DNA from: an uncultured Chloroflexia bacterium
GTDB taxonomy: Bacteria; Chloroflexota; Anaerolineae; CG2-30-64-16
NCBI GenBank assembly: GCA_963810095.1
Contig: CAWEMM010000006.1
Coordinates: 1,419,353 to 1,483,352 of the forward strand
Direction: 5' to 3'
DNA length: 64,000 nt
Below the pieces are notes generated by a model that saw only the letters and a list, made by a program, of their open reading frames with translations, did not search any database and had not been told where the DNA came from. Shown here piece by piece: positions 3,934-61,745 of the stretch (positions are counted from its first letter, which is position 1; each line of letters opens with the position of its first letter). The position numbers were made by a program, and so were the translations under genes.

Positions 3934-4738
3934 CGAACGGCCGTTGATCCTGTTGACCAACGACGACGGGATTGCTTCGCCCGGGTTGCTGGCGGCAGCG
4001 GAGGCGGTGTGCGACCTGGGCGAACTGCTAATTGTCGCGCCCGCCACCCAACAGACAGGGATGGGTCGCGGCACGCCGCCGATCCTAAACGGGGCGCTGA
4101 CGGTCGAGACGCTGCGGGTCGGGTGCGAGGACGTCCGTGTGTATGCATTGAACGGCTCGCCCGCGCAGACGGTCGTGATTGCGGTGCTTGGCATCGCGGA
4201 GCGGCGGCCGGCGCTGGTGGTCTCAGGCATCAACCACGGCGAGAACCTGGGCACGGCGGTGACCGGGTCGGGCACGGTTGGGGCGGCGCTGCAGGCGGCC
4301 GAAATGGGGATTCCGGGCTTGGCCGTATCGCTCGAGGTCGAGAAGGTCTACCACTACAACCACGCCGAAGACTTGCACTGGAGCGCGGCCGCGCACTTTA
4401 CGCGCTATTTTGCACAGCGCATGCTGGCCCAGACCATGCCGTTCGACGTCGACGTGCTCAAGGTGGACGTGCCGGCCGAGGCGACTGCCGAGACGCCCTG
4501 GCGTATCACAAGACAGGCGCGGCAGTCGTATTACAAGGTCTATCCGCCAAAGATGCGTCTGGCGCCCGGGCCGCTGGCAGAGCTCGACTATGGGATCGAG
4601 ATCGATTGGGATGACCTGCCGCAGGACACGGACGTCTACGTCTTTGCGCGCGAGCGGGTGGTGTCGGTGACGCCGTTGAGCCAGGATCTGACGTCACGTA
4701 CGGACGTTGCCGGCCTGGAGCGCCTGCTGCGGGGCTAG
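3926..4738 (+). CDS. surE: 5'/3'-nucleotidase SurE
   Basis: LLTNDDGI and SGINHGEN motifs typical of SurE; 270 aa. Confidence 0.85.
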   Translation: MADERPLILLTNDDGIASPGLLAAAEAVCDLGELLIVAPATQQTGMGRGTPPILNGALTVETLRVGCEDVRVYALNGSPAQTVVIAVLGIAERRPALVVSGINHGENLGTAVTGSGTVGAALQAAEMGIPGLAVSLEVEKVYHYNHAEDLHWSAAAHFTRYFAQRMLAQTMPFDVDVLKVDVPAEATAETPWRITRQARQSYYKVYPPKMRLAPGPLAELDYGIEIDWDDLPQDTDVYVFARERVVSVTPLSQDLTSRTDVAGLERLLRG

Positions 4739-4780
4739 TGTTTGGTGGGCGACCGGCCAGAGCATGACGGGGCAAATGGT

Positions 4781-5100
4781 GATGTTTGTTGGGGGCCGTC
4801 TGGCCCCCAACGCCCCCGACGGGGGGCTGCGCCCCCTCGTCCCCCAAAGGTTAAGGGGACGCGTGGCTTCCGCCAATTGGCCCATTTGAGCGTCCACATG
4901 GCGGGGCCAGACGGAAGCGGCTTGCGGGAAACCGGCATTTTGTGGAAGCACGGTTCTGATGCCGACTGCCGTGAGCGAGTCCGGCTGCTGCCCGCTGTCA
5001 ACACGGCCGGGGGCGTTGACCTTGGGGGTTTCGGGGGCAAGGCCCCCGAGGCGGGGGCGGCGGGGCAAGCCTGCCCCCGCCAAGACAAGATGTAGCAAGG
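4781..5100. repeat. dispersed GC-rich hairpin repeat element (REP/MITE-like), copy A
   Basis: Palindromes TTGGGGGCCGTCTGGCCCCCAA, GGGGCTGCGCCCC, GGGGGCAAGGCCCCC; same ordered motifs recur at 14950-15130, 42889-43287 and 58385-58476/61603-61745. Confidence 0.65.
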
Positions 5101-5135
5101 GCGGCGGGGCAAGCCGGCCACAACAGTGAGGTTAA

Positions 5136-6818
5136 TTGACAATGTCGAAACGTCTGCTTGCATTATTCCTGATTCTTCTAGTCAGCCTGGTCCTGGCTGC
5201 GTGCGGCGGGCCGGCCACCCAGCCGCTGAGCTACCGCCCCGCGCCGTGGCAGAGCGGGGAGGTCAGCCGGTACGACCTGGTGGACCGCGGCGGCGCCACC
5301 GTTGGCACGGCCGAGTGGACGTGGCAGCGCGCCGGCGATCAGTGGCGCCAAGGCTACACCGTGACCGTCAACGGCGTGCCAGACACGGGCGAGGTCGTGC
5401 TCGACAACAGCTTGAAGTCGTTGAGCTCGTGGCGCGAGGTGGGCGGCAAGCGCTTCGATACCACGTACGGCGCGAAGACCATCGAGGTCAAGACGACGGC
5501 CGCGGACGGCACGGTCACGACGAAGAGCCTGCCCGCACCGGCCGACGCAATCGACAACGACGTCTCGCTGCAGATTCAGCGGGCAATGCCGCTGGCGGCG
5601 GGCTATGCGACCCGCTACACCGACATTATCCCGACCACGGGCGGCGCGGCGCCCATCGTTCTGAGCGTCACCGGCGCCGAAACGATCACGGTTCCCGCGG
5701 GCACGTTCCCGACGTGGAAGGTCAAGATGGCGGTGGGGTCGACCGCGCACGAGGCGTGGTACGCGCAGCAAGCGCCCTACGCGATGGTGAAATACCTCAA
5801 CTCGGGCTCGGGTGCGCAGTTCGTGCTGACCGGCCTGGCAGGTGCCGCATCTGCGACGGCGTCACAGCCGGCGGCCACCCCGGTTCCGGGCGCGGCTGCA
5901 GTTGCTGGCGAACCGGGGGCCATGGCGCCCATCAACTGGCTCTACCTCGCGCTTGTCGTGTTCATCCAATTGCCCTTCCTGCTTGGCTTGCCGATCGTCT
6001 TGGGCTGGTGGATCAAGCGGCGGTATGGCATCGGCTGGGGGGTGTTCGGGTGGGGCGCACTCTCGTTCATCCTGTCGCAGGTCGTCCATATCCCGCTCAA
6101 CATGGCGCTGGGCCTGATCGGCGCGCCGCCCCGGGGCGTGGCCCTGGCGTCCCCCTTCGTGCTCGGCCTGGTCGCCGGCCTGAGCGCGGCGGTGTGCGAG
6201 GAAGGTATGCGGCTGCTCGTGATCACCGTCTTCGCTAAGAAGATTCGCGGCTGGCGCCCCAGTTTGCAGTTCGGCGCGGGGCACGGCGGCGCGGAGAGCA
6301 TCATTCTCGGCCTGCTGGTGGCCGTGAATCTGATCGGCATCCTGGCCTCGCGCAACCTCGGCGCGATTGGACAAGTGCTGCCCCCCGAGGCAGCCGCACA
6401 ACTGCAGGCCGCGCAGGCCGCATTCTGGGGCCAGAGCCCCTGGATTCCATTCGTCAGCGTGATCGAGCGCATTTCGGCTCTCGCCTTGCAGGTGTCGCTG
6501 GCCGTGCTCGTAGTGGCTTCCGTTACGCGGCGCCGGCCGCTCTACTTCGTCGCCGCGCTTGCGCTGCACACCGTGGTCGATGGTTGGACGATCTGGGCGC
6601 AGCCGCTCGGTGTGGCTGCGATCGAAGCCGGGGTGGCGCTGGCGGGACTCCTGGCCCTGTGGATTATCTGGCGGCTGCGTGAGCAACCCGCTGCCCTCCA
6701 ACCCGTATTAACAGGTGAAGCGGGCAGCAGCCCGGTTCCGAACGCAGCCGACCTGTCCGAGCAGGCGCTTTCACCTGATGAGCTGGCCCGGCGGGCCGAG
6801 CGGTCGCGGTACGAGTAA
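5136..6818 (+). CDS. lipoprotein-domain / YhfC-family intramembrane metalloprotease-like fusion protein
   Basis: N-terminal lipobox (LVLAAC); C-terminal polytopic region with EEGMR and GAGHGGAE motifs characteristic of YhfC family (recalled from family knowledge). Confidence 0.65.
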   Translation: MTMSKRLLALFLILLVSLVLAACGGPATQPLSYRPAPWQSGEVSRYDLVDRGGATVGTAEWTWQRAGDQWRQGYTVTVNGVPDTGEVVLDNSLKSLSSWREVGGKRFDTTYGAKTIEVKTTAADGTVTTKSLPAPADAIDNDVSLQIQRAMPLAAGYATRYTDIIPTTGGAAPIVLSVTGAETITVPAGTFPTWKVKMAVGSTAHEAWYAQQAPYAMVKYLNSGSGAQFVLTGLAGAASATASQPAATPVPGAAAVAGEPGAMAPINWLYLALVVFIQLPFLLGLPIVLGWWIKRRYGIGWGVFGWGALSFILSQVVHIPLNMALGLIGAPPRGVALASPFVLGLVAGLSAAVCEEGMRLLVITVFAKKIRGWRPSLQFGAGHGGAESIILGLLVAVNLIGILASRNLGAIGQVLPPEAAAQLQAAQAAFWGQSPWIPFVSVIERISALALQVSLAVLVVASVTRRRPLYFVAALALHTVVDGWTIWAQPLGVAAIEAGVALAGLLALWIIWRLREQPAALQPVLTGEAGSSPVPNAADLSEQALSPDELARRAERSRYE

Positions 6819-6829
6819 GCGAGGATTCG

Positions 6830-13063: not shown

Positions 13064-14936
13064 GCCCGCGCAGCCCATGAACCTGTCTCCCAGCGTCCCT
13101 GCCCCGCGCCCTGCGCCCCTCGCACGAGTTACAGCCTGGCTGCGTCGCGATGTGCACCTGTGGTTGGCCCTACTCCTGGTCGTCCCTGCAATGCTGCCGC
13201 TCTTCGCGCCGGGCTACTTCGTGAAAGCCCACGACGCGCGGCACAGCATCTTCTTCCTGGTCGAGTTCGACCGCAGTTTCAGCGAGGGCGCCTTGTGGCC
13301 CGTGTGGGGGCCCGACCATGCCGTCGGATTCGGCTATCCGACGTTCTTGTTGTACGCACCGCTCGCGTTTTACGTGGGCGAGGCATTCCACCTGCTGGGT
13401 CTTGGCTTCGCCGCGGCGACGAAGGCGACCTGGGCGCTCGGCTTCCTGCTGGGCGCGGCGGGCACCTACCGCCTTAGCCGGCGCTGGTTCACCCCCGCAG
13501 TTGCGCTGGTTGCGAGCCTCGCTTTCACGTACGCGCCGTATCACCTGGGGCAGATCTACGTGCGCGCCGCCCTTGCCGAGTTCATGGCGCTTGCCTGGTT
13601 GCCCTGGGCCGTGCTGGCCTTCTTACGACTGTGGGACGAGCCGGGACCGCGCCGGGCGGCGCTGGCCGGGCTGGCGTTGGCGGCGTTGTTGCTGTTTCAC
13701 ACAGTCTCGACGTTGACCTTCGCGCCGCTGATCGGCGCGCTGCTGGCGCTGCTCCTCGTGCGGGACGCGGTGAAGGCGCGCTCGCTCGTGCGGGCGGTGC
13801 GCTCGCCGCAGGCCGGCTGGACGTTCGTGGCGCTGGTCGTGGCGGGCCTGCTCTCCTGCATCTTCTTCGTGCCCATGCTCCTGGAGCGCGGCGGCGTGGC
13901 ACAGTGGCAGTGGGTCAAGGAGACGTACAGCTACCGGCTGCACTTCGTCTATCCGGGTCAATTCCTGCTTCCCACCTGGGGCTATGGCTACTCCGTGGCA
14001 GGCCCGAACGATGGCATGAGTTTTCAGGTCGGCATCCCGATCTTCCTGCTGGCGGTGCTGGGCGCCGGCGTGGCGCTGCTGAGGCGCGCGCGTCCTGAGC
14101 CGACCGCCTTCCAGCTGGAAGGGGTGGAGGCGCCGGTCGCGCCTCCGGCGGGCGGGCGATTAATGGTCCTGTTCCTCACGGCCGTCACGCTGGTGACCCT
14201 GTTCCTGATGACGCCGGCGGCGCAGGGCATCTGGGATGTGCTGCCCCTGGTGGAGTTAATCCAATTTCCGTGGCGTTTGCTGGCGGTGGTCGTGTTTGCG
14301 CTGGCGCTGCTCGCAGGTTGGGGCGCATGGCTGCTCAACTCGCGTGCCTTGCGCCGGGGACCGCAAGGCGTCAGCCCCTTCGTCTACGTTGCCGGGTTGG
14401 CGCTCATCGTGAGCAGCCTGCCGTTCACGCGGCCCGAGATCGTCCCGCTCAGGCCGCAGGATGAGAGCCCGCTCGCGGTGCTCGACTTCGAGATGGCCTT
14501 CCCCGACATGCGCGGGTTGACCGCGTGGGCCGAGCGGCCGCCCGCGGACGCCGACTCGCCGCTGATTGCCCAGTACCTGGCCGGGCAGCCGCTGCAAAAG
14601 GCGGCGATTGCGTCGGGCTCGGGCACGATTCTCGAGCAGTCGTCCGGTGCGCTGTCGGCGCGGGCGAGCGTGCGCGCGACCGGCCCGTTGTCTCTGCGCT
14701 TCTACACGTATTACTTCCCCGGCTGGCGTGCGACGGTCGACGGGCGGCCTGCTGAGTTGCGGGCTGAGGGCCCGAACGGGCTGATGACGGTGGACGTGCC
14801 GGCCGGCGAGCACGAAGTGCGGGTTACGTTTGGGCAGACCCCGGCGAGGATGGCCGGCCGGTTGCTGGCCGCCCTGGGTGCGCTTCTATGCGTGTTTTTG
14901 CTGGTAAAGGGCAAGCGCAAGGCAATTATCGGCTGA
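13038..14936 (+). CDS. PTPS-related membrane protein, putative GT-C glycosyltransferase (intact paralog)
   Basis: 632 aa; APGYFVKAHDARHSIFF and GFGYPTF motifs, many TM segments, conserved C-terminal YYFPGWRATVDG region. Confidence 0.75.
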   Translation: MHASLARSEPAQPMNLSPSVPAPRPAPLARVTAWLRRDVHLWLALLLVVPAMLPLFAPGYFVKAHDARHSIFFLVEFDRSFSEGALWPVWGPDHAVGFGYPTFLLYAPLAFYVGEAFHLLGLGFAAATKATWALGFLLGAAGTYRLSRRWFTPAVALVASLAFTYAPYHLGQIYVRAALAEFMALAWLPWAVLAFLRLWDEPGPRRAALAGLALAALLLFHTVSTLTFAPLIGALLALLLVRDAVKARSLVRAVRSPQAGWTFVALVVAGLLSCIFFVPMLLERGGVAQWQWVKETYSYRLHFVYPGQFLLPTWGYGYSVAGPNDGMSFQVGIPIFLLAVLGAGVALLRRARPEPTAFQLEGVEAPVAPPAGGRLMVLFLTAVTLVTLFLMTPAAQGIWDVLPLVELIQFPWRLLAVVVFALALLAGWGAWLLNSRALRRGPQGVSPFVYVAGLALIVSSLPFTRPEIVPLRPQDESPLAVLDFEMAFPDMRGLTAWAERPPADADSPLIAQYLAGQPLQKAAIASGSGTILEQSSGALSARASVRATGPLSLRFYTYYFPGWRATVDGRPAELRAEGPNGLMTVDVPAGEHEVRVTFGQTPARMAGRLLAALGALLCVFLLVKGKRKAIIG

Positions 14937-14949
14937 CGCCTGATGACTA

Positions 14950-15130
14950 TTTTGCGGGGGCGCTCTTGCCCCCGCCGCCCCGACGCGAGTGGCTGCCCAC
15001 GACCGACTCATTGGCGGGGAGCGCTCTCGCCCCCGACGCGAGGGGTTGCCACGACCGACTCATTGGCGGGAGCGCTCTTGCCCCCGCCGCCCCCGACCAG
15101 GGGCTGCGCCCCTTGGAACCCCAAAGGCAG
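14950..15130. repeat. dispersed GC-rich hairpin repeat element, copy B with internal ~50-bp tandem duplication
   Basis: GGGGCTGCGCCCCTTGGAACCCCAAAGG and GGGGGCGCTCTTGCCCCCGCCGCCCC motifs; duplicated unit CCACGACCGACTCATTGGCGGG. Confidence 0.6.
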
Positions 15131-15317
15131 CGCTGTAGGTACACGTTCGCCTGGATAAGTCACTGTACGGGGGATGAGCCAGGGCGGCAGGAACCATGCG
15201 TGTGGTTACAACGCCTAACGGGCCACACGGCTGATGAAGGCAGCCGGCCCGCCGTAAGCGTTGCCTTCGGAGGTTCTGGGGGCGGCGGCGGCATGACATT
15301 GGTCGTATCTGCCTGGG

Positions 15318-15347
15318 CAAACTTGCGTTTGTTCGTGCAGATTATTA
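15318..15347 (+). promoter_or_regulatory. sigma-70-like promoter (TTGCGT-17-TATAAT) upstream of LysM gene
   Basis: TTGCGT then 17-bp spacer then TATAAT, ~15 bp before the ATG. Confidence 0.4.
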
Positions 15348-25797: not shown

Positions 25798-26716
25798 TTA
25801 CCCCTGCTCGCCGACCAAAACGCTAATCTCGGTGACCTGGCCGCCGCGCAACAGGCGAACCGGGACGGCCTTGCCGACGCGGTCACCGCCGAGCGCGGCC
25901 AGCAGGTCGTCGAGGTGCGCGGTGCGCTGGCCGTCGAGCGAGAGCAGCGTGTCGCCCATGAAGAGGCCGCTGCGTTCCGCAGGGCTGCCGGCTTCAACCG
26001 AGCCCAGCAAAAGCCCCGTCTCCTGTCCGACTTGCTCTGCTATAGCCTGCGGCAGGCGCACGGTCTGTGCGCCTACGCCCAGATAGCCCGCGCTTCACCC
26101 GCCCGTGCCGCAGCAGCGCCTCGGCCACCCGCCGGATCGTCTCGGCCGGGATGGTCAGGGTAACGTCGCGCAGCATGGCCGACGTGTTAATGCCGACGAA
26201 CTTGCCCCCGGCACTGACCAGCGGCCCGCCCGAAAAGCCCGGGTACATGAGCGCGTCCGTCTGGAGGTAGTAGTCTAGCTGCCCGCCGGCGGGCGTGCGC
26301 CAGTCCTTTTTGAGCGCGCTGATGATCCCGAGGGTCGCCATAACGCTCTGCCCCGGCCGGCCGAGCGCCAGTGCGAGGTGGCCGACATGGAGGAAGTCAC
26401 CGCCCGCCCAAGCCGGCGCCGCCAGTTCTCCGGCCGCCTGCAGACCGTCGGCGCCGATGCGGAGGAGCGCGAGGTCGGTGGTCGGATCGCGGCCGACGAG
26501 GGTCGCGGTCACCGTGCGCCCGCCGGCCAGGCCAATGCCAATGTTCTCGTCCTGCTCGACGACATGATGCGCGGTAACGATCAACCCGTCCGCAGACCAA
26601 ACGACGCCGGTCGCGGGCAGCCGCCGCCGGCCTTCCACCCGCACGATGCTCGGGCCTGCGATCTCCACTGCCGACGCCAGCGCGTCGGACACTGATGCCA
26701 ATGCTTCGCCAGTCAT
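25798..26716 (-). CDS. HtrA/DegP-like serine protease with PDZ domain; apparent frameshift near 26080
   Basis: Protease domain (TAHHV, GFSGGPLV) in ORF 25994..26716; PDZ domain in ORF 25798..26061 in another frame. Confidence 0.65.
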
Positions 26717-35298: not shown

Positions 35299-35381
35299 GC
35301 CGAAGTGGCGGAACGGTAGACGCGACGGTCTCAAACACCGTTGGGGGTTGCCCCATGTGGGTTCGATTCCCACCTTCGGCA
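35299..35381 (+). tRNA. tRNA-Leu (anticodon CAA)
   Basis: Cloverleaf: acceptor GCCGAAG/CTTCGGC, anticodon stem ACGGT/ACCGT with loop CUCAAAC, long variable arm, T-arm GGTTCGATTCC. Confidence 0.85.
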
Positions 35382-35677
35382 CTTCTGATCCCGTCCGGGT
35401 GCTTTTACACCCGCGACGCCCTCGCTTTCTTCTTTTGTCCTGTTTGTTGCGAGGGACCTTGCCCTTCGTGTGAGCCGCAGTTGCCAGCGCAATTGCTCAT
35501 TGCACGTGCGGCGCCATTATAGCAGTCTTGCGGGTTCGGAAGCAAAGGCTGCGTCCCAAAATCTCAAACGGGGATCTGTCCCAGATGCATGACGCTTCGG
35601 GCAGAGCGTCTGAACCGTCCTGCATAGACCACAGGACGCAAAGGGCGCAAAGCCCTGATTCCCTGCGCGAAAGCCAC

Positions 35678-38812: not shown

Positions 38813-38849
38813 GCCGCAAGTTGCCGTCGGGCAACGCCAACCTCCGAGG

Positions 38850-38895
38850 TCGCCTCAGCGTCGCTGAGGGTCAGGACCCCGGAGGTTTTTTGTTG
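38850..38895 (+). terminator. rho-independent terminator
   Basis: CCTCAGCG-TC-GCTGAGG hairpin, second GC stem, then TTTTTTG. Confidence 0.5.
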
Positions 38896-40180: not shown

Positions 40181-40339
40181 GACGAATTAGGACACTGATT
40201 GAACTGTTGAGACGGATGCACCTGATCTCTTTCGCAAAGACAGGGCAGATCAGTTCAATATGCGTCCCATTCCAGGTCAAAACGCTGACCGCGCCGATGG
40301 TCATGACGGTCGCGGGGCCGGGCGCGTACCAAACCCAGA

Positions 40340-40371
40340 CCTCGGAGGTTTTCAAAACCTCCGAGGTCTTT
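40340..40371. promoter_or_regulatory. perfect 15-bp inverted repeat GACCTCGGAGGTTTT / AAAACCTCCGAGGTC (bidirectional terminator or operator)
   Basis: Directly visible palindrome between acyl-CoA dehydrogenase and amidase genes; ACCTCCGAGGT core also in terminator at 38838. Confidence 0.4.
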
Positions 40372-40391: not shown

Positions 40392-42888
40392 ATGCCGCCA
40401 TTGGTGAAAGCAACCGCCGCCACGCTAAGCGCCACCCTGACCGGCGTTGGTCGCGCCCGCCGGCCCACGCTGAAAGGCCATCTGCGACTCCCCGAGTTGA
40501 GCGGCCCGGTCGAGGTCTTTCGGGATGCGTGGGGGGTGCCCCATCTCTACGCCGGCAGCGCGGCGGATCTCTGTTTCGCGCAGGGCTTTGTCCATGCCCA
40601 GGACCGGCTTTGGCAGATGGATTTCCAGCGCCGCCTCGTCGCCGGCCGGCTGGCCGAGGTATTGGGGCCGGCGGTGGTGGGCGTGGACCGCAGCCTGCGG
40701 GTGCTCGGCATGTACCGGGTGGCAGAGGCGGAGGTAAGCCTCCTGAGCGCGGAGGCGCGGCGAGAGGCTGAGGCCTACGCCTCGGGCGTCAACGCGGCCA
40801 TCGAACGGCAGCCGCTGCCGGTCGAGTTCACCTTGCTGCGCTACCGGCCTTACCCTTGGCGAGCGGCGGACTCGCTGTGCTGGGCGAAGATGATGTCATG
40901 GGCGCTGTCGGTCAACTGGGAGAGCGAGCTGCTGCGCGCGAGGCTGATCGAAGTGCTGGGCGTAGAGCGGGCCGCGCAGCTCGAGCCGCTGCTGGCAAGC
41001 CCGATTGTAACGGGGGGCGAGCGGCGTCCCGCGCACCCCTACGGGCCGCTGCCGCCGCGGAATGCGGCGCAAGGACGTGAAGGGGCCGCTCAAGCCGACA
41101 GCGCACCAGAAATCCACATGCCTTCCACGCCGGGCACCCCCGGCAGCAATAACTGGGTCATTGCTGGCGCGCACACGGCCAGCGGCAAGCCCCTTCTGGC
41201 GAACGATATGCACCTGTTGGTCTCCGCGCCGGCCATCTGGTACGAGAACCACCTTGTCTGCACCGATCCCGGCAGCCCGGTCGACGTCACCGGCGTTTCA
41301 TTTCCCGGGATTCCTTTTGTGGTCGCCGGGCATAATGACCGCGTGGCCTGGGGCTTTACCAACGGCTTCCCCGACGTGCAGGACCTGTTTGTCGAGCACC
41401 TCCGCCGGACCGAGCGCGGGGTGGAGTACGAGCACCGGGGCCAATGGCTGCCCGCCGAGGTGCGGCGGGAGGAAATCCGGGTCAAGGGCGAGGCCGCGGT
41501 AACGGAAGAAGTCATCGTCACGGTCCACGGGCCGGTCATCAACCGGCTGGCGGTGGGACTGGCGATGCAGCCCGGCGCGGACGGTCTGCCTGAGCAGCCG
41601 CTCGCGTTGTGCTGGACCTCGCTGACGCCCCACCCAATGGTGGAGTCGCTGCGGGCCATGAACCGGGCGAGTTCGTGCGCCGAGTTCCGGGAAGCCTTGC
41701 GCGGCTGGGTCGCGCCGACCCAGAACGTGGTCTATGCGGACACGGACGGCAACATCGGCTACACCTTCGCCGGTCGAGTGCCGATCCGCCCGCGGGGCGA
41801 AGGCCGCGTGCCCGCGCCGGGCTGGACCGGCGAGTATGACTGGGCAGGCTGGATTCCTTTTGAGGAATTGCCGCACCAACAGAACCCGGCCGAGGGCTAC
41901 ATCGTGTCGGCCAACAACCAGCCGGTCGACGAGAGTTATCCGTACTTCATCGGGCGGGAGTTTGCCCTGGGCGACCGGGCCGGCCGGATTGCCGAGCTCA
42001 TCCGCTCGGGTTCCGCCATCAAGCCGAGCGACATCCGGATCATGCAGCTGGACCAGGAGGCGTCGTCGCTGAAGCGGCTCGCGAGTGTCTTGGGCGGGCT
42101 GGAGCCCTCCGAGCCGGAGCTGCGGGGCTTGGTGACCCTGGTCAGGGCATGGGACGGCCGGCTGACGGCGGAAACCCCTGCGGGCACGATCTGCGAGATC
42201 AGCGGCCCGCGAGGTGCAGATGCTGGTGATGAGGGCCGTGTTGGGCGAAGCCGGCGTTAGCGTGACGCCTGAGAACCCGATTCCCCTCGTCGAACGGGTG
42301 TTGGGTCGCGGGCCCACCCCTGGGATCCAGGACTTTAGCGCTTTCTATCACCGAGTTTGGGAGTGGCTGTACTCGGTGTTGGAGGAGCCGGCGTCGGAGT
42401 GGTGGGATCTGGGGGGCGGCGAGACGCGCGACGACGTGCTGCTGGTTGCGCTCCGGCGCACCTACGACTACCTCGCCGACCGACTGGGCCAGCCTGACCT
42501 GCCCGGCTACGCACAATGGGCGTGGGGCCGGCTTCATACCGTGACGTTCGGGCACGTTGCCGGGCAGGCCCCCACGGTGGCGCGCCATTTCAATCGCGGC
42601 CCGTACCCGGTCGGTGGAGATGAAAACACGGTGTTTGCGACCGGCGGCGGTGTGACCCCCGAAGCCAGCCGGGCCGTGGTCGCGCCGCCCTTCCGCTTCA
42701 TCGCGGACCTGTCCGACTTGTCGCGCTGCTACGGCTTGCTGGCCCCGGGCAACTCGGGGCGACCTGACAGCCCGCACTATGATGACCAGGTTGAGGCGTG
42801 GTTCAAGGGAAAGTATCATCCGATGCTGTACAAGCGGGAGGATGTGGAGCGGGGCGCCCGGCGCAAGCTCATTTTGGCGCCGGCATAG
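40392..42888 (+). CDS. penicillin amidase / penicillin acylase family (Ntn hydrolase, S45); apparent frameshift near 42200
   Basis: SNNWVIAG nucleophile motif and family-typical N-terminal region; C-terminal 220 aa in ORF 42214..42888 frame. Confidence 0.75.
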
Positions 42889-43287
42889 GGGGGCTTTCTT
42901 TTGTTGGGGGCCGCCGGCCCCATCCATTGGATATGTCTTCTGTTGGGGGCCGCCGGCCCCCAACGCCCCGGCCGAGGGGCTGCGCCCCCTCGACCCCCAA
43001 ACTTACTCGGGGAACAGTTCATTTGTGGAGCAACGGCTGGGGCCCACGGACCGCTGCGGGGCTGCCAGTTGCGGGCTTGCACGAGGCCGGCATTTTAGGA
43101 AATGCGCGAGCAATAGCCTCCTCGGGGACATGCAGACGCCGATCTCTTTGGCGATAACTACGCCAGGAGCGTAGCAATTGGGGGTCTCGGGGGCAACGCC
43201 CCCGAGGCGGGGTTGGCAGGGGCCGGCCGGCCCCTGCCAAAAGACCGGAACCTCGAAGCGGGGTGGACGGAGGCCGCCGGCCCCTGC
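42889..43287. repeat. dispersed GC-rich hairpin repeat element, copy C (longest)
   Basis: Two TTGGGGGCCGCCGGCCCC modules, GGGGCTGCGCCCCCTCGACCCCCAAA, GGGGGCAACGCCCCCGAGGCGGGG, GGCAGGGGCCGGCCGGCCCCTGCC palindromes; colinear with copy A. Confidence 0.65.
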
Positions 43288-45061
43288 CTAACGCCGCGTC
43301 AAGCCCCACACGAATGCGGCGCCGGCCGCGACGAACAGCCCCGTCGTCAGCCCGGACGACCCACTCGACGTCTGGAACATCATTCCCGCCAGGAATAGCC
43401 CGCCCGCTAGCACGGCCCAGGTGAGCCGGTCGACCGAGCGTTCGAGACGGCGGATCGCCTTCGCCGCATCGGGCGCGAGGGCGGTCTGCTGCACCAACTC
43501 GCCGCGCTCGGCCGCGGTGAGGAACCGGTCGAGTCGCACGGGCAGCCGGAGCGCCAGCTGCATGATGCTGCCCAGCTCGTCTAGCACGCCCCGCCAATCG
43601 CGCGCTAGTTCCTGCGATGCGAGACGCTCGGCGAAGGGCAGCGTCGCAGCCCACGGGTCGAAGTGCGGGTCGAGCGTGGTCGCCATGCCCGACAAGATCG
43701 CGACGGCCCGGATCGCGAAGAGCACGTCGGTGGGGAACTGGAAGGGCAGGTCGTACACCAGGTCCCGGTACTCTCGTATGAGGAACGCGGCCTGCTGCAT
43801 GGCCACGCCGGTGAGTTGGCCCATGCGCACGCCGCCGAAGCGGGCGAACAGAACGTCGTGCAACTCCTCGATCCGCTGCCTGTCTGCCCCCGGCAGCAGC
43901 ACGCCCGCGTCGTAATAAGCCTGCACCAGCCGGCGGGCGTCGCGCGTGCCCACCGCGATCGCCACGTCACGCATCGCACCGCGCATGCTCTCCGGGATCA
44001 CCGCCACCATGCCGAAATCCACGAAGATCAGCCAGAACGGCCGCGGACTGCCGGGCGGTGCCGCGGGATCGCGCGGCAGGGGGTGTACGAACAGGTTGCC
44101 GGGATGCGGGTCGGCGTGGACGAAGCTGTGAACGAAGATTTGCTCGAGGTAGGTGTCGTACAGGCGGCGCGCGACTTCGGCCCCGCTGATCCCCGCAGCA
44201 TCCATGGCCGCCACGTCGTCGATCTTGATGCTGGCGACGTTCTCCAGCGTCAAGACGCGGCGGGTGGTGTATTCCCAGAAGACATCCGCAATGTAGATGC
44301 CGGGATCGCCGGCGAAGTCGTCGGCAAACCGGTCCGCGTTGCGGCCCTCTTCGATGAAATCGAGCTCGGCGCGTGTGGTGCGTGCGAACTCGTCGTAGAG
44401 CCGGTCGAGGTCCGCATGCCGGTTGATGGGGGGGTAGAGCTTTAGCCAGTTGGTCGCCAGGCGCAGTGCGGCGAGGTCGGTTTCGACGAGGAGCTCGATG
44501 CGCTTCCGCTGCACCTTCACCACCACTTCCTCGCCGTCCAAGAGCCGCGCCAGGTGCACTTGTGCCAGCGACGCGGCGGCCTGTGGGGTGGGCGAGAGCC
44601 AGGCATAGACCTCTTCGACCGGCCGCTTGAACTCGCCTTCGATCACGGCGCGGACGTCTTCGAGCGTTTCGGCGGGCACCTCGTCCTGCAGACCGCGCAG
44701 CTCAGACGTGACTTCCGGCGGCAGCATGTCGACGCGAATGCTGAGGAACTGCCCCAGCTTGATCAGAACGCCGCCATAGCGAACCGCCAGGGCCCGATAC
44801 CGCTGTGCATGAGCACGCCAGCGCGCGAGGTTGGTTGCCCGCACGTAGGAGCGGAAGCCGGGCAGGTGGCCCAGCACGAGGTTCCAGCCGATGAAGGAGA
44901 GAAAGACACGCGGCGAAGTAGAACGCGACGCGCAAGTAACGCACGCGGTCGAGCGGCGCGCCGGCCGAAGCTGCCGGCTGTACGAAGTTGGAGAGTTCGC
45001 CCAGCGCAACCTGGCTGGCAGGCGCCGTTCTGGGGCGACGGAAGCGGCGCCCAATACTCAT
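43288..45061 (-). CDS. ABC1/UbiB-family atypical protein kinase; apparent frameshift near 44915
   Basis: IKLGQFLSIRVDMLP and kinase-like core in main frame; N-terminal MSIGRRFRRPRT...YLRVAFYFAA in ORF 44702..45061 frame. Confidence 0.7.
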
Positions 45062-46664: not shown

Positions 46665-46812
46665 GCGTCTGAAATGGGACACTGATGCAACCGGATCTGA
46701 GACCGATCTATCGTTGCTGCGCTGCCTGCGGGAAAAGATCGTGACAATCAGTCCGATCGGTTCGATCAGTGTCCTATTTCATCAGCGTTGACCAGCCCTG
46801 CGGGGTGAATGT

Positions 46813-55532: not shown

Positions 55533-58386
55533 ATGAGCGCTAGCATCGAAGCCTGGCGGATCGTTCCCTACGAAGGAGGCGCATCGCCCGTTCAAGAAGG
55601 TGCGGGTGCGCGACGAGGCCGCGGGTGCGCGCGGTCGTGCGGCACCTGATGAACGACGAGTGCGTCGCCTTGCTCGGTCCGCCCATGAGCGAGAAGAGCC
55701 ACCTGCTGCGGGACGTGGCGGAGGCGCTGGAGCAGGGCGGTCGCTTCCGGCCGCTGCATATCGACTTGTGGCGCACACGATCGAACGATGAGGCCGCCTT
55801 CTTCACCAGCCTTGCCGAGTCTGCTGGCCGACGAGCTGCGGGACGCCGGCGCCGCGAGTCCCGACGAGCCGGCCGAGCACGCGCGGTTCCAGGGTTATCT
55901 CGCCGCTTGCGAATGCGAGCGGCCGCAGCCTTGCGCTGCTGATCGATCACCTGCAGGCGCTGCCGCACGACCTCGTCCACAGCCTGCTGCGTCGCCCTGC
56001 GCGCGGCCTACATGGAGCGCGAGGCCGACGCGCCGCACAGCCTGGTCGCGGTGGTCACCGGCGGCATCAACCTCGTCGGTCTGTCCGTCCGGCCCGACCT
56101 CGCCGTTCAACATCGCCAAACCCGTGGTCGCGACACCGCTGACCCTCGAACAGAGCCGCGCGCTGGCCGAGGCGACGCTCAAGCGCTGGAGTGCTCGGCA
56201 TCCGCCAACGGCATGGACCGCTTGCTGAGCCTGGGCGCAGGCGACCGGTACCTGATTCCGCGGCTCTGCGCCGACAGCTCCGAACTGGTCAGCTTGCACC
56301 GCCTGCACCGCGTGACGTCGGCCATTGCGGATCGCGCCGGCGCGGGCGCTCGTCGCCCGCGGACGCGGCCGCCGCCCGTTCGCGCCGCCATCCGCATGAT
56401 CGAGGAAGACCCGGACACGGTGCTGGACGTGCTGCACCTGCTCGACCACGGCTCGCTGCCGCGCTCACGCTCGCGCCAGATGCCGACGCGCACCGGCACG
56501 GACCGGCTGCAGCTCTCGGGCGCGGTGGTCCTGGTCGGATGGGTGCTACGGCTTTATGAACGAGGCGTACCGCGAGGCGTTGGCCGCGCACTTCACCACC
56601 GACCGGGTCGGGCACATGTTGCGGATTGCCGGGCCGGTGGAGCGAGGCGATCGCCTATCTCGCGCCGCAGCGGGCGCGCGTCGCGCGTCCGCAGCTGCTC
56701 GAAGCCATCGTCCAGATCGATCTATGCGAGCTGACTCGTCCGAACAGGCGTATCGGGCTGCTGGCCGACGGCCTGCGGCTCGGCTTCGGCCTGTCGGACA
56801 TCGGCATCTACTGCGGCGCTGCCGGCCGACTGCTCAGCTCGACCGCGTCTATCCGCCCAAGGACGGCGGCCCGAGGAGCACGTCGACCTGCGCGATCCCG
56901 GGTGCGTCGAGGCCCAGACCTTCAACCTGGGCAACTATGCGCTGCGCGGCACCGCGGATGAGGCGCGCCTGGTCGTCGCGCTGGCATCGGCCAGCCGGCC
57001 GCTCGGCGTCGTGACGATCGAACGCTATGTGCAGAACCGCGATCCGCACGAGCTGCCCGACGAACTGCCCGACCTGCTGCGTTTCCTGCAGCACGCAGTC
57101 CGGGGCGCTGGAAAACGTCATCACTCGGGCTGCCTACCGCGCCATCGGACAGGCCGTGCTGGATGCCAAGGCCATGCAGCCGACCGTGGAGCGGGTGCTC
57201 GAGACGGTAGCGGAGGCGCTTGGGCTGCGACTACGGCGCCCTGTATCTGCGGGATGAGACCGCCGCCAGCTGGAGATGGCCGCAGCAGTCGGCAGGGTGG
57301 TGACGGAGGAGTGGCAGGCGCAGGCGCGCTTTCCCCTCGACGGCCGACACCCCGCGGTCACCGCGCTGCTGGAGGGGCGGATGTTGACGGCGCGAGGGGG
57401 CGAGGACGCAGAGGACCGCGTGCTGCACGACCGTTTCGGCCTGCACCGCTACCTGCGCGTCTTCCTGCCTCTGCTCGCCGGCGGCGAACAGCTCGGCACG
57501 CTCGAACTGGGCTACGCGAGCCGGCCGCATGCGCATGTCGGATGAGCTACAAGCGGACGCTGGTCGAGTTCGCCGACCAGGTGGCGATCGCGGTGCATAA
57601 CATGCTGCTGCTGCGGCGGACGGACGAGGCGCTGGCACGCGCAAGCTGGCCGAGCTTGTCGGTGGGCCGCGAGATTCAGCTCAGCCTGCTGCCGAAGGTC
57701 ACGCCGACCGTTCCCGGCTGGCAGTTCGCGGCCATGTACGAGGCCGCCCGCACCGTCGGCGGCGACTTCTACGACTTCTGCGAATTGCCGGGTCCGCCCG
57801 CATCGGCTGGGCGTCGTCATTGCCGATGTGGCGGACAAGGGCGTGCCGGCCGCGCTGTTCATGGCGGTCAGCCGGACGATCATTCGCAGCGTCGCGCTTC
57901 ACCGGCCGCGGCCCGGCCGTCTGCCCTGATGCGAGCGAACCAACTGATTCTCGCCGACAGCCAGGCCGACCTGTTCCTGAGCGCGATCTACCTGGTGCTC
58001 GAGACCGACAACGGGCGCGGATTTCGTTCAGCAACGCGGGGCACAACCGGCCGCTGCTGGTACCGCGCTGCGGACCGCGCAGCTCACGCGAGCTGACCCA
58101 GCGCGGCATCATCCTGGGCGCGTTCGACGAGATCACGCTGCAGGACGACACGGCTGGACCTGGCCGCCGGCGACGTGCTGGTGCTGTACACGGACGGCGT
58201 CACGGACGCGCTCAACGCGGACGGGCGAGGAGTTCGGCGAGCAGCGCCTGTTCGACGTGGTGCGGGGCAGCGCCGCACGGCAGCGCGCAGGAGATCCTGT
58301 GGGCGATCACGGGCGCGCTGGCGGGCTTCATCGGCGACACGGAGCAGGCGGACGACGTGACCTGCGTCGTGATCAAGAAGGACTAG
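55533..58386 (+). pseudogene. large regulatory protein: degenerate P-loop NTPase-like N-terminus, GAF domain, PP2C/SpoIIE-type phosphatase C-terminus; many frameshifts
   Basis: LLGPPMSEKSHLLRDV, LALLIDHLQAL, GAF-like DYGALYLRDE..., PP2C motifs [43 protein letters not shown], ends VVIKKD. Confidence 0.4.
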
Positions 58387-58476
58387 GCCTTTGTTTGTTG
58401 GGGCCCGGATGACCCTCAACACCTGGTTGCATGGGCCGCCTTGCTGTTGGGGGCCGTCGGGCCCCCAACGCCCCCG
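58385..58476. repeat. dispersed GC-rich hairpin repeat element, copy D left half (split by IS insertion)
   Basis: CTGTTGGGGGCCGTCGGGCCCCCAACGCCCCCG matches copy A 4788-4824; right half resumes at 61603. Confidence 0.6.
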
Positions 58477-58562
58477 TGTATAGACCGGGGACATAGTAGA
58501 CAGTCGTTCGGAGACATGGTAGACGCTAGAATGGGAATAACTGCCACCGGAAGGAGGCTGAT

Positions 58563-59705
58563 ATGCCCTGGCGAGAGGCAAATGCCATGTCCTTACGACT
58601 TGATTTCGTGACCCGAGCTGGTCACGAAGCTGCTAACGTGCGGGCCCTGTGCCGCGAGTTCGGTATCAGCCCGAACACTGCGTACAAGTGGCTTGTGCGC
58701 TACCAGGCGGCGGGGCCCGCGGGGCTGGCCGATCGCTCACGGCGCCCGAACGCAGTCCGAGCCGACACGCCGCCCGGCCGCGAACAGTTGGTGCTGGCGA
58801 CGCGCCAGGCCCACCCGGCCTGGGGCGGCCGCAAGCTCAAGGCCTACCTGGAGCAGGCCGGCTATGCGGACGTGCCGGCAGCTTCCACCATCACAGCCAT
58901 TCTGCGCCGGCACGGGGCGCTGGATGACCAGGAGGGCGCTCAGCATCGCGCCTTTCAGCGTTTCGAACGTGAGGCGCCCAACGAGCTGTGGCAGATGGAC
59001 TTCAAGGGCCATTTTGCGCTCGGGGATGGTACGCGCTGCGACCCCTTGACGGTCCTCGACGACCATGCGCGCTTCCTGTTGGCGCTGGACGCCTGTGCCG
59101 ACGAGACCCGCCGCACGGTGCAGGCCGCGCTGACCGGCGTCTTCGAGCGCTACGGCTTGCCCGAGCGCATCCTGTGCGATCATGGGCCACCGTGGGGCGC
59201 CCCCAATGCCGGCGACGTGTACACGACGTTGAGTGCGTGGCTCTTGCGGCTGGGCATCGGGGTCGTGCACGGGCGGCCCAAGCATCCGCAGACGCAAGGC
59301 AAGGACGAGCGATTGCATCGCACGTTGCGGGCCGAGTTGCTGCGCCGGCAGACGTTCGCCGATCTGCCGGCCTGTCAGCCCGCCTTCGATACCTGGCGGC
59401 AGATGTATAATGAACAGCGCCCGCATGAGGCGCTAGCCATGCAGGTGCCGGCGGCCCGCTATCGGCCCAGCCCGCGCCCGTGGCCCGCCCGCCTGCCCGC
59501 GATCGAGTATCCGGCCAGCGACCGAGTGCGCCGGGTGCAAGATAAGGGCCAGATCAAAGTCGGCGGCCACGAGTTTCGCATCGGCAAAGCCTTCATCGGC
59601 TACCCGGTGGGCCTCCGGCCCACGAACCAGGACGGCTGCTATGACGTTTACTTCTGCGCCCAGCGCATTGGCCAAATTCAACTATCCGCCGGGCAACGGA
59701 TTTAG
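58563..59705 (+). CDS. IS481-family transposase (DDE/rve integrase)
   Basis: 380 aa; HTH N-terminus, rve core with HGRPKHPQTQGKDERLHRTL. Confidence 0.85.
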   Translation: MPWREANAMSLRLDFVTRAGHEAANVRALCREFGISPNTAYKWLVRYQAAGPAGLADRSRRPNAVRADTPPGREQLVLATRQAHPAWGGRKLKAYLEQAGYADVPAASTITAILRRHGALDDQEGAQHRAFQRFEREAPNELWQMDFKGHFALGDGTRCDPLTVLDDHARFLLALDACADETRRTVQAALTGVFERYGLPERILCDHGPPWGAPNAGDVYTTLSAWLLRLGIGVVHGRPKHPQTQGKDERLHRTLRAELLRRQTFADLPACQPAFDTWRQMYNEQRPHEALAMQVPAARYRPSPRPWPARLPAIEYPASDRVRRVQDKGQIKVGGHEFRIGKAFIGYPVGLRPTNQDGCYDVYFCAQRIGQIQLSAGQRI

Positions 59706-59709
59706 CTCA

Positions 59710-61518
59710 GCCTGTGGGTAAGGGGCTGTCCGAAAAGTAATCGGGCGGCCCCTTTTTTGCGTGCTTTTCTCGCGTTCTTTAAGGATTCATGGTTTAATGG
59801 GGGCATGAAACGCAAACCTGCTGCCCCCGTCTTCAAGCCCTACACGATGGCTCAGCCGCAGTTGCTGCCGCCGAGCCTGGATGAGTTGATCGAGCCGGAC
59901 CACCTGGTGCGGGTGGTAAATGCGGCGATCGACCAGTTGGATTTGCGGCCGCTGCTGGCGCAGTACCCCGGCGGCGGGACGTCCAGCTATCATCCGCAGA
60001 TGCTGCTGAAGGTGTTGGTGTACGCCTATTGCAGCAAGATCTACTCGTCGCGGCGGATTGCGGCGGCGCTGCGGGAGAACATTCACTTCATGTGGTTGAG
60101 TGGCGGGAACCGGCCGGACTTTCGCACGATCAACGACTTTCGCGGGCAGCGGATGAAGGGCGTGATCGACGCGGTGTTCGCCGAGGTGCTGCAGTACCTG
60201 GTCGAGGCGGGGTACGTGCAGTTGGAGCACTACTTCGTCGACGGGACGAAGATCGCCGCCGATGCGAACCAGCACAAGGTGGTGTGGGCCAAGCGCACGG
60301 CGCGTTACCAGCAGCGGGTGCGGGAGCAGATCGCGTGAGTTGCTGCGGCAGATCGAGCAGGTGAATGCTGACGAGCAGGCCGAGTACGGCGATGCCGATC
60401 TGGAAGAGCGGGGCCGGCGGTGGGGGTGGCGAGATCGACTCGGACGCAACTCAAGGAGCGCATCGACCAACTCAACCAGCGGCTCCGCGAGCGTCAGCAC
60501 CCCAAGCCCGAAGCCCAGGCAGCCGAGAAGGCGCTGAAGAAACTGGCGACGGATTGTCTGCCGCGGTTGGAGAAGTACGAGCAGCAGACCGCGACGCTGG
60601 CGGGGCGGTCGAGCTATGCCCAGACCGACCCGGACGCCACGTGCATGCGGATGAAGGAAGACCGCGGCGCCGAGCGGCCCTGGCCCAAGCCGGCCTACAA
60701 CGTGCAGGTGGGCACGGAAGGGCAATTCATCGTCGGGTTCAGCGTGCACGACCAGGCGGGCGACACCGGGTGCCTGATCCCGCATCTGGAGCAGGTGCGC
60801 CAGAACACCGGCGGCCGCTTACCGCAGAACGTGGTGGCGGATGCGGGGTACGGCAGCGAAGAGAACTACGCCTATCTGGAACAGCAGCAGGTGGGCAACT
60901 ACCTCAAGTACAACACCTTCTACCAGGACACGCATCATTACCGCGACCCGGCCGTGCTGCGGGCGCACCAGTTCCGGGCCGAGAACTTCGCCTACGACGC
61001 GGCCACCGACACCTTCGTCTGCCCGGCCGGCCAGCGGCTGCACTTCCAGTACACCACCCGCTACACCAGCGACAACGGCTACCTGAGCGACCGCCGCATC
61101 TACGAATGCTTCGCGTGTGCCGACTGCCCGCTGCGCAGCCAGTGCACCCGGGCCAAAGGCAACCGCCAGATTCGCATCAGTTTCCGCTTGCTCGCCTACC
61201 GCAAGCAAGCCCGCGACAACCTGACCAGCGCCGACAGGTGAGCGCTTACGCGCCGCGCGCTCCGTCGAGGTGGAAACCGTCTTCGGGCATATCAAACAGA
61301 ATATGGGCTTCCGGAGATTTCACTTACGCGGGCGGGCGAAAGTGAAGACCGAATGGGGGCTCGTGAGCATCGCTCACAACCTGAAGAAGGTGGCGGCCGC
61401 ATAGGCCGCTTTTTTTCTCCGCTTTCCGCGAGCTCCAACTCATCTCCCGCTGACTCCGAATCGGCACAAGAAAGGGGCTGCCTGGATGTTCTTTCCAGAC
61501 AGCCCCTTACCCACAGGC
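59710..61518 (+). mobile_element. IS1182/IS5-like element nested inside the IS481 element, 21-bp terminal inverted repeats GCCTGTGGGTAAGGGGCTGTC
   Basis: IR at 59710-59730 and reverse complement at 61498-61518; inserted immediately after the IS481 transposase stop. Confidence 0.65.
59805..61404 (+). pseudogene. IS1182-family transposase with ~3 apparent frameshifts
   Basis: N-terminal DUF772-like segment (ORF 59757..60338), DDE segment (ORF 60420..61241: VVADAGYGSEENY), C-terminal ...HIKQNMGFRRFHLRG...AHNLKKVAAA in a third frame. Confidence 0.6.
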
Positions 61519-61602
61519 CCGACGCGACGACACCATTCTTTAAGGTGTTCAGGTGTCTACGATGTCCCCGAACACCTGTCTACGATGTATTCGGTCCATA
61601 CA

Positions 61603-61745
61603 CCCCGACGAAGGGCTGCGCCGCTTCGACCCCCTAATTTGCTCGGGCAGCACCGCATCCGCCGTCTAACGCGCACGGCTGCCGGCCGGGACGGGGCCGA
61701 CAGTGGCAGGCTTGCACGAACCGACGCGATGGAAAATGTACGTCA
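61603..61745. repeat. dispersed GC-rich hairpin repeat element, copy D right half
   Basis: GACGAAGGGCTGCGCCGCTTCGACCCCCTAA and GGCTTGCACGAACCG match the middle of copies A and C. Confidence 0.55.

Follow-up and report, generated by a model that had tools for sequence, protein, structure and literature searches.

A probable MITE-like repeat family with compound two-hairpin ends in an uncultured Anaerolineae-like Chloroflexota bacterium

GC-rich palindromic blocks recur between genes in the 64,000-nt stretch of DNA analysed here (the window). We asked whether these blocks form a genuine repeat family and, if so, what kind of element they belong to. A first-pass annotation had proposed that the blocks are colinear and recur in at least four copies within 64 kb, and we recovered the same block order at the positions it named. 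All four copies lie on the + strand: element A (4762-5113), element B (14938-15288), element C (42883-43287), and element D (58387-58476 plus 61603-61745).

Recurring blocks and the anatomy of the full element

We compared the copies with each other and with shuffled sequence. A BLASTN search of the window with element A returned element C in two blocks (E 3.7e-18 and 6.8e-15), element B at E 5e-10, and the two halves of element D at E 1.8e-9 and 1.4e-4. Elements C and D aligned over 118 nt (E 8e-8). A 34-nt degenerate motif had four exact matches in the window, compared with 0.00 expected from 100 dinucleotide shuffles, and a 35-nt motif for the right end had two matches, again with 0.00 expected from dinucleotide shuffles. 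The family blocks were also the top families that a repeat finder reported for the window. An nhmmer profile of A, C, and D found no further full copies there.

The GC content of the window is 62-70%, and short GC-rich palindromes are common in it. This composition is what one would point to in arguing that there is no real family, and that the copies are either GC-rich hairpin terminators that look alike by chance or products of a local duplication. Against this, the similarity is colinear over about 310 nt and includes one block that is not a hairpin. BLASTN E-values as low as 1e-18 and motifs with an expectation of zero place the similarity far above that expected from GC composition. The copies are spread over 57 kb beside unrelated housekeeping genes, and they are not a local duplication, since the two-hairpin unit described below also occurs in five contigs outside the window and thus in other organisms. 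The BLASTN results, the motif shuffles, and the matches to covariance model R1 (below) refute chance likeness and local duplication, which we regard as extremely improbable.

Each of the four copies in the window starts 0-25 nt past the stop codon of a co-oriented gene. The copies had been described as lying mostly between convergent genes. We found this arrangement for only two of the four; A and B lie between co-directional genes.

The blocks follow a fixed order. The first is a hairpin, TTGGGGGCCG-loop-CGGCCCCCAA, followed by CGCCCC. A second hairpin centred on GGGGCTGCGCCCC comes next, followed by CCCCCAAA. About 70 nt further on lies a central block, GGCTTGC..CCGGCATTTT, and after a further 70 nt or so come TTGGGGGT.TCGGGGGCAA.GCCCCCGAGGCGGGG and another GC hairpin. 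The first-pass annotation had called every block a hairpin former, a description that fails for the central block (GCTTGC...CCGGCATTTT), which is conserved and forms no hairpin of its own. It had not remarked that the left-hand blocks return on the right as their reverse complement. In a full copy, a core of about 170 nt is flanked by a left unit and an inverted right unit, so that the element ends in long terminal inverted repeats (TIRs), each of about 70 nt. These same elements were also matched on their reverse strand by the nhmmer profile of A, C, and D. A covariance model (R1) built from the left two-hairpin unit recognised left units on the + strand and right units on the - strand, with E-values from 1e-10 to 1e-15. 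In self-alignments, self-complementarity was limited to the terminal 70-75 nt. We considered whether the whole element is a palindrome and rejected this description because the core is not self-complementary.

Element A is a full copy of 352 nt located between SurE (stop codon at 4736-4738) and a DUF3108/YhfC gene (ATG at 5142). Its left unit (4782-4852, + strand; R1 77 bits, E 1.9e-15) contains hairpins H1 (4789-4810) and H2 (4818-4841) with conserved C5 tracts. The central block (GGCTTGCGGGAAACCGGCATTTTG; 4919-4942, + strand) is 71% identical to that of C and is also present in D. The right unit (5018-5087, - strand; R1 55.4 bits, E 1.7e-10) contains hairpins H3 (5031-5049) and H4 (5056-5081). 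Element C is also a full copy, 405 nt long, and sits where a penicillin-amidase gene and an ABC1-kinase gene converge, between their 3' ends. Its left unit (42936-43005, + strand; R1 77.5 bits, E 1.5e-15) carries H1 at 42943-42963 and H2 at 42973-42992, its central block (GGCTTGCACGAGGCCGGCATTTTA) lies at 43074-43097 on the + strand, and its right unit (43174-43244, - strand; R1 62.5 bits, E 4.1e-12) carries H3 at 43186-43206 and H4 at 43213-43240. Element C also has an extra partial H1 (42904-42922) and an extra partial H4 (43272-43288).

Conservation between A and C is uneven. Identity is 84.5% in the left unit and 79% in the right unit, compared with 50% in the left core and 55% in the right core, both at the level of shuffled sequence. 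Identity in the central block is 71% (shuffles 48 +/- 4.6%), and this block of about 30 nt is the only conserved part of the core.

Fold prediction, which the first-pass annotation had proposed as a check, returned strong structure. The elements folded far more stably than shuffled sequences, with z-scores of -4.1, -6.3, and -5.6. The predicted fold of element C consists of H1, a long end-to-end pairing (panhandle) that encloses the core, and H4.

We found no sign that the element encodes a protein. Similarity in tblastx searches appeared in every frame on both strands and was confined to the blocks that are similar as DNA. We therefore rejected coding potential for the core and consider the element to be non-coding. 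Searches with Rfam 15 at gathering scores detected only a tRNA in the window, and searches of the elements and outside loci at E-values up to 10 gave nothing relevant, with all matches far below gathering scores. We found no sigma-70-like promoter in the elements and no U-tract terminator-like site on either strand of A or C. Two other candidate readings were rejected by eye. The central block lacks the -24 GG of a sigma-54-like promoter. GTTRRRY and RYYYAAC-like motifs occur in the wrong order for an integron attC site, and the neighbouring genes are syntenic housekeeping genes, which also argues against an integron.

Empty sites in relatives and target duplications

We examined the orthologous sites in related organisms. 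The relatives were ERZ25039503 contig_57109 (loci L010 and L011; 92% protein identity in ABC1 and 85% in SurE), ERZ25039554 contig_84171 (L009 and L012), GCA_964572645.1 (L008), and two Logan contigs (L006 and L007). Two parts of the window, 1-17 kb and 33-55 kb, share synteny with these relatives (70-88% DNA identity), and the main gaps in the synteny alignments are the element sites. The orthologous sites were empty at all three copies that could be tested (A, B, and C). The 350-405 nt of the element in the window correspond to 31 nt (A), 120 nt (B), and approximately 0 nt (C) in relatives.

Site C provides the clearest record of an insertion. Window segments 42500-42882 and 43289-43700 align to L008/L009 at 12147->11765 and 11772->11361, respectively. 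L008 and L009 lack the intervening 406 nt, and the two flanking alignments overlap by 8 nt. Element C is flanked by TGGCGCCG (42875-42882) on the left and TAACGCCG (43289-43296) on the right, and L009 has a single TAGCGCCG at this site. Judged from the aligned sequences, this is an 8-bp target-site duplication whose two copies have each changed once since. The element is also absent from L010, where the flanks are separated by about 29 unaligned nt. Site C is the only site at which a duplication is backed by an empty-site alignment.

The insertion of element C rewrote the 3' ends of two convergent genes. In relatives, the amidase ORF overlaps the convergent 3' end of ABC1 by about 110 nt. Element C removes this overlap in the window and provides a new stop: the first bases of the element, GCATAG, supply the amidase stop codon, and the right copy of the duplication carries the ABC1 stop codon.

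The amidase gene is itself split in the window into two overlapping ORFs (40392-42260 and 42214-42888) of 622 and 224 aa. The gene is a single unit of 870-873 aa in L008 and L009, and it is also split in L010, elsewhere along its length. Compared with the intact gene of L008 and L009, the split in the window indicates a frameshift, a pseudogene, or an assembly error.

At site A, L011 has 31 nt in place of the 415 nt in the window (4751-5165); in that relative, 19 nt separate the SurE stop codon from the start of the next gene. The spacer between SurE and YhfC is 97 nt in L006, where it contains no unit, and 11 nt in another contig. Element A is flanked by a putative 9-bp target-site duplication, CCGGCCAGA (4753-4761) and CCGGCCACA (5114-5122), which we used to define its boundaries. 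The copies agree at 8 of the 9 positions, and the empty site in L011 has a single GGGCCAGTT. This match is suggestive of a duplication and could be due to chance. A longer apparent duplication at the left flank, which resembles the start of the downstream gene in L011, was judged spurious, since it coincides in part with the unit's conserved T-rich leader.

Gene content next to SurE also varies among the relatives. The DUF3108/YhfC gene follows SurE in the window, L006, and L011 and is absent from ERZ25039554 (L012). In L012 (10814-11008, corresponding to window 4739-6829), SurE is followed directly by an ABC transporter gene at the same spot as element A.

Element B had been described as a copy of about 180 nt (14950-15130). 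Comparison with relatives instead revealed a lineage-specific insertion of 351 nt (14938-15288, + strand) located right after the stop codon of a gene for a PTPS-related membrane protein. The family accounts for only the left 190 nt, and the right 160 nt have no similarity to A, C, or D. Where the window has 458 nt (14861-15318), L012 has 120 nt. A conserved promoter-proximal flank comes directly after the stop codon in L011 and lies 351 nt further on in the window. A putative duplication around B (CGGCTGAC / CGGCATGAC) spans 8-9 bp, requires an indel, and could have arisen by chance. The sizes of A, B, and C are 352, 351, and 405 nt, with some uncertainty in the outer termini of A and B.

The left part of element B consists of three tandem units (14947-15129) that repeat every 56 nt or so; in the first and second of these, the second hairpin is degenerate. 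R1 matched 15059-15129 on the + strand with 72 bits (E 2.5e-14) and 14947-15041 with 27.7 bits. This arrangement indicates that the unit can multiply in place in addition to moving.

The two segments reported previously for element D (58385-58476 plus 61603-61745) turned out to be a single copy that is split by a 3126-bp insertion sequence of the IS481 family. Element D starts directly after the stop codon of a SpoIIE-type phosphatase gene. Its left part (58387-58476, + strand) contains a degenerate extra H1 (58392-58423) and H1 (58447-58468). Its continuation (61603-61745, + strand) contains H2 (61609-61628), the left core, and the central block (61709-61732). No right half is present in D, and next comes a convergent LTD-domain gene with its 3' end at 61743.

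The IS481-family element (58477-61602, + strand) interrupts D within the linker between H1 and H2, where it is flanked by a 5-bp duplication of CCCCG (58472-58476 and 61603-61607). Its inverted ends are TGTATAGACC... and ...GGTCCATACA, and its transposase gene (58563-59705) has matches to the Pfam families rve, rve_3, HTH_32, and LZ_Tnp_IS481. Near its 3' end lies a nested IS1182-like element (59710-61518, + strand) with 28-nt inverted ends that are 93% complementary. The transposase gene of this second element is frameshifted (59757-60338 and 60420-61241) and matches DDE_Tnp_1_6 and DDE_Tnp_1. Counting D, this region (58477-61602) holds three layers of nested mobile DNA. The ends of the window's two insertion sequences are unrelated to the ends of the repeat family.

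The two-hairpin unit within and beyond the window

The repeating unit of the family is about 65-70 nt long and consists of a T-rich leader, H1, a CCCCC linker, H2, and a CCCCCAA tail. We aligned 16 units with MAFFT. RNAalifold chose an alternative G5:C5 pairing on this alignment, and we took the two-hairpin structure from single-sequence folds and tested it by counting pairs. The H1 stem varies among the 16 units as TTGGGGGCC/GGCCCCCAA, GGCGGGGGC/GCCCCCGCC, and TGTGGGGG/CCCCCACA, and the outer stem of H2 as CG/CG, CA/TG, TC/GA, and GA/TC. No variation was seen in the unpaired CCCC(C) linker or in the CCCC(C)A tail. Across the 16 units, 86.6% of cells were paired, compared with 77.0 +/- 1.3% in shuffles. 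We counted 23 cells that had changed on both sides of a pair, compared with 6.9 expected, a value reached by none of 500 shuffles. Control alignments in which the partners were slid by 1-3 columns had 47-65% of cells paired. The excess of compensatory changes over shuffles indicates that the hairpins are selected, and it is compatible with a role at either the DNA or the RNA level.

We searched public sequence collections for the unit. A strict 34-nt motif had one match in 185,579 species genomes, in an Anaerolineae MAG (L001). A relaxed 35-nt motif had four matches in metagenome contigs (L002-L005) and no match in viral contigs. BLASTN searches of plasmid and phage collections returned no match. 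Both motifs require the H2 loop GGGCTGCGCC, so these scans miss diverged members and undercount the family. L001, L002, and L005 each have a weaker inverted partner unit 130-200 nt away, and the recurrence of this layout indicates that the arrangement of unit, core, and inverted unit is general.

The unit takes other arrangements in L004. Six tandem units with a period of about 150 nt (4850-5700) occupy a divergent promoter region beside a SurE gene, and two units in opposite orientation (26-256) lie 4.6 kb from this array. The SurE protein of L004 is 39% identical to that of the window, and the GC content of L004 is 51-59%; these values indicate that the unit is present in distant organisms. 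In L001 and L004, the unit lies antisense to and upstream of genes, an orientation to its neighbours that differs from that in the window. R1 found no unit in L006 or L008-L012, which represent about 100 kb of the nearest relatives. The distribution of the family is patchy: the unit is absent from this sequence and present in a distant organism. The units of L004 are also far more GC-rich than their surroundings.

These data bear on the idea that the repeats are structured RNAs, either small RNA genes or a 3'-UTR stabiliser or terminator that is transcribed with the upstream gene, with hairpins that act in RNA. Such a role would agree with the strong predicted structure (z -4 to -6), the covariation in both hairpins, the invariant unpaired C5 tracts of the 16 units, and the position of all window copies 0-25 nt past the stop codon of a co-oriented gene. 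It is at odds with the lack of Rfam matches at E-values up to 10, the absence of a promoter-like or U-tract terminator-like site, the lack of conservation in the core, and the antisense, upstream units of L001 and L004. The presence or absence of the repeats beside unrelated housekeeping genes in close relatives fits insertion and not conserved regulation. We consider a primary role in RNA quite unlikely, and an inserted element may have RNA-level side effects.

Family classification and other repeats in the window

Our results establish that the copies are homologous, that they have long TIRs and hairpins maintained by compensatory change, that they are insertions relative to the orthologous sites of relatives, and that at least one insertion is flanked by an 8-bp target duplication. 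We propose that the repeats are probably a family of non-autonomous, MITE-like elements of about 350-400 bp from uncultured Anaerolineae-like Chloroflexota. This classification is based on their small size, lack of coding sequence, long inverted ends, drifting interior, insertion at all three sites that could be compared, target duplication at site C, and patchy distribution. Such mosaic conservation as is seen here (79-85% in the units, 71% in the central block, and 50-55% in the rest of the core) is typical of MITE ends. Both A and C have cores saturated with changes, which suggests that the insertions are old or derive from master copies that diverged long ago.

If the elements move as MITEs do, a transposase encoded elsewhere in the genome would bind the hairpin-containing ends and mobilise the element in trans. 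The 8-9-bp duplications suggest that this putative enzyme is probably of the DDE type and makes staggered cuts of 8-9 bp. In this compact genome, insertions may survive only where they fall in the very short spacers between genes, and such survival, as distinct from target preference, would explain why all four copies lie 0-25 nt from a stop codon with the downstream promoters undamaged. The module may also be maintained on its own or multiply in tandem, with copy B and locus L004 as examples, and would then behave as a REP-style building block. We found no transposase gene with matching ends in the window or beside the units in the five outside loci, and the outermost termini of A, B, and C have no clean shared terminal sequence.

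The main rival to the MITE-like classification, given the arrangements of the unit, its covarying hairpins, and the one-strand orientation of the copies, is that the family resembles REP/BIME or REPIN sequences. The unit would then be a REP-type sequence that a domesticated IS200/IS605-like tyrosine (HUH) transposase (RAYT) recognises as single-stranded DNA, and a full copy would be an inverted doublet that moves without duplicating its target. Compensatory changes that maintain hairpins fit this model, as do the occurrence of singles, inverted pairs, and tandem clusters (B and the six units in L004), which are also found among REPs (PMC3733652), and the report of GTAG-type REPs in one Chloroflexi species (PMC3733652). 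The four window copies share one strand, which chance alone would produce in 1 case in 8, and the window has positive GC skew throughout. This orientation would fit single-strand (HUH-type) transposition better than DDE transposition.

Other features do not match such sequences. No GTAG or CGTC tag occupies a fixed column of the 16-unit alignment. The unit spans about 65-70 nt with two hairpins, compared with a single palindrome of 20-40 nt in REPs, and the inverted units are about 170 nt apart, a much wider spacing than in REPINs. HUH transposition does not generate target duplications, whereas site C has one of 8 bp. We saw no RAYT gene among the genes that flank the units. The first-pass label, REP/MITE-like, is thus strongly supported in its MITE-like part and not in its strict REP part, since the GTAG/CGTC tag is absent. 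A REP or REPIN origin appears unlikely, and we retain the MITE-like classification.

Known bacterial MITEs include Correia/NEMIS elements in Neisseria, RUP in Streptococcus pneumoniae, Nezha in cyanobacteria, and ERIC/IRU in enterobacteria. In general description, the family is similar to these elements. It is about 350-400 bp long, non-coding, intergenic, and dispersed within the window; it has long imperfect TIRs capable of forming a panhandle, with conserved ends and a drifting interior; it varies in presence between related genomes; and it has a short target duplication at site C. Unlike the named MITEs, its ends are compound modules of about 70 nt with two GC-rich hairpins and invariant C5 tracts. 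The module is also found alone and in tandem arrays, a central block of the core is conserved in addition to the ends, and no parent insertion sequence with matching ends is known.

REPs are defined by a GTAG (or CGTC) tag at the end of the palindrome, and singlets, BIMEs, and clusters have been described (PMC3733652). The family shares with REP, BIME, and REPIN sequences an extragenic location near gene ends, GC-rich imperfect palindromes, compensatory stem variation, and occurrence as singlets, inverted dimers, and clusters. It differs from them in lacking the GTAG/CGTC tag, in having a two-hairpin unit twice as long, in the spacing of about 170 nt between inverted units, and in the target duplication at site C. 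Within the same phylum, the GTAG-23 REP family of Thermomicrobium roseum (Chloroflexi) also consists of palindromic repeats, characterised by a GTAG tag and a single short stem-loop (PMC3733652). The unit described here has neither trait and is set apart from GTAG-23 by description. In the literature on MITEs in Chloroflexi and Anaerolineae, we found no description of such a family or of any MITE from Anaerolineae, and the only related report for Chloroflexi concerned the GTAG REPs of Thermomicrobium. We conclude that the family is a previously undescribed example of a well-known kind of bacterial selfish DNA and that it does not challenge the current understanding of bacterial repeats. It is unusual only in its compound two-hairpin end, which occurs as a free module as well.

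The module retains its unpaired CCCCC tracts and covarying stems in organisms with SurE identities as low as 39%. We speculate that it may have a role beyond forming the ends of a single MITE, as a conserved structured module of Chloroflexota-like genomes that is recognised by a dedicated protein, with a new REP-RAYT-like, ssDNA-binding, or RNA-binding partner as a candidate. Such a module could multiply by itself, in tandem arrays, or in inverted pairs that enclose captured cores of unrelated sequence. Each unit has four C5 runs (G5 on the other strand), which would allow an i-motif or G-quadruplex as an alternative to the hairpins.

This family documents an undescribed MITE-like element in the Anaerolineae, a poorly studied and mostly uncultured group. 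Its precise insertion sites, with empty-site proof, are usable as strain markers, and the defined 70-nt structured module provides a handle for seeking a binding protein or transposase. The elements also explain the long spurious ORFs across these intergenic regions.

Two other small repeats occur in the window. A second palindromic intergenic repeat, GACCTCGGAGGTTT..AAACCTCCGAGGTC, is unrelated to the main family and lies at 38838-38888 and 40338-40369. It had seven matches at two or fewer mismatches, compared with 0.8 expected, and one of these, at 5018, overlaps element A by chance. Close relatives also carry this repeat, in contrast to the main family, and in them it lies downstream of SurE (L006 2087-2100, L007 1676-1689, and L012 10824-10854). 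A third small repeat with GGACACTGAT ends is found at 46677-46774, 40190-40265, and 26687-26696. The copy at 46677-46774 is about 98 nt long with perfect 10-bp inverted ends, and a related 51-nt arm at 40181-40231 is 73% complementary to 46733-46783. The sites at 46677-46774 and 40181-40231 both fall in gaps of the synteny alignments with relatives, and this repeat looks like another tiny MITE-like family. The sole RNA gene detected in the window was a tRNA-Leu (CAA) at 35299-35382.
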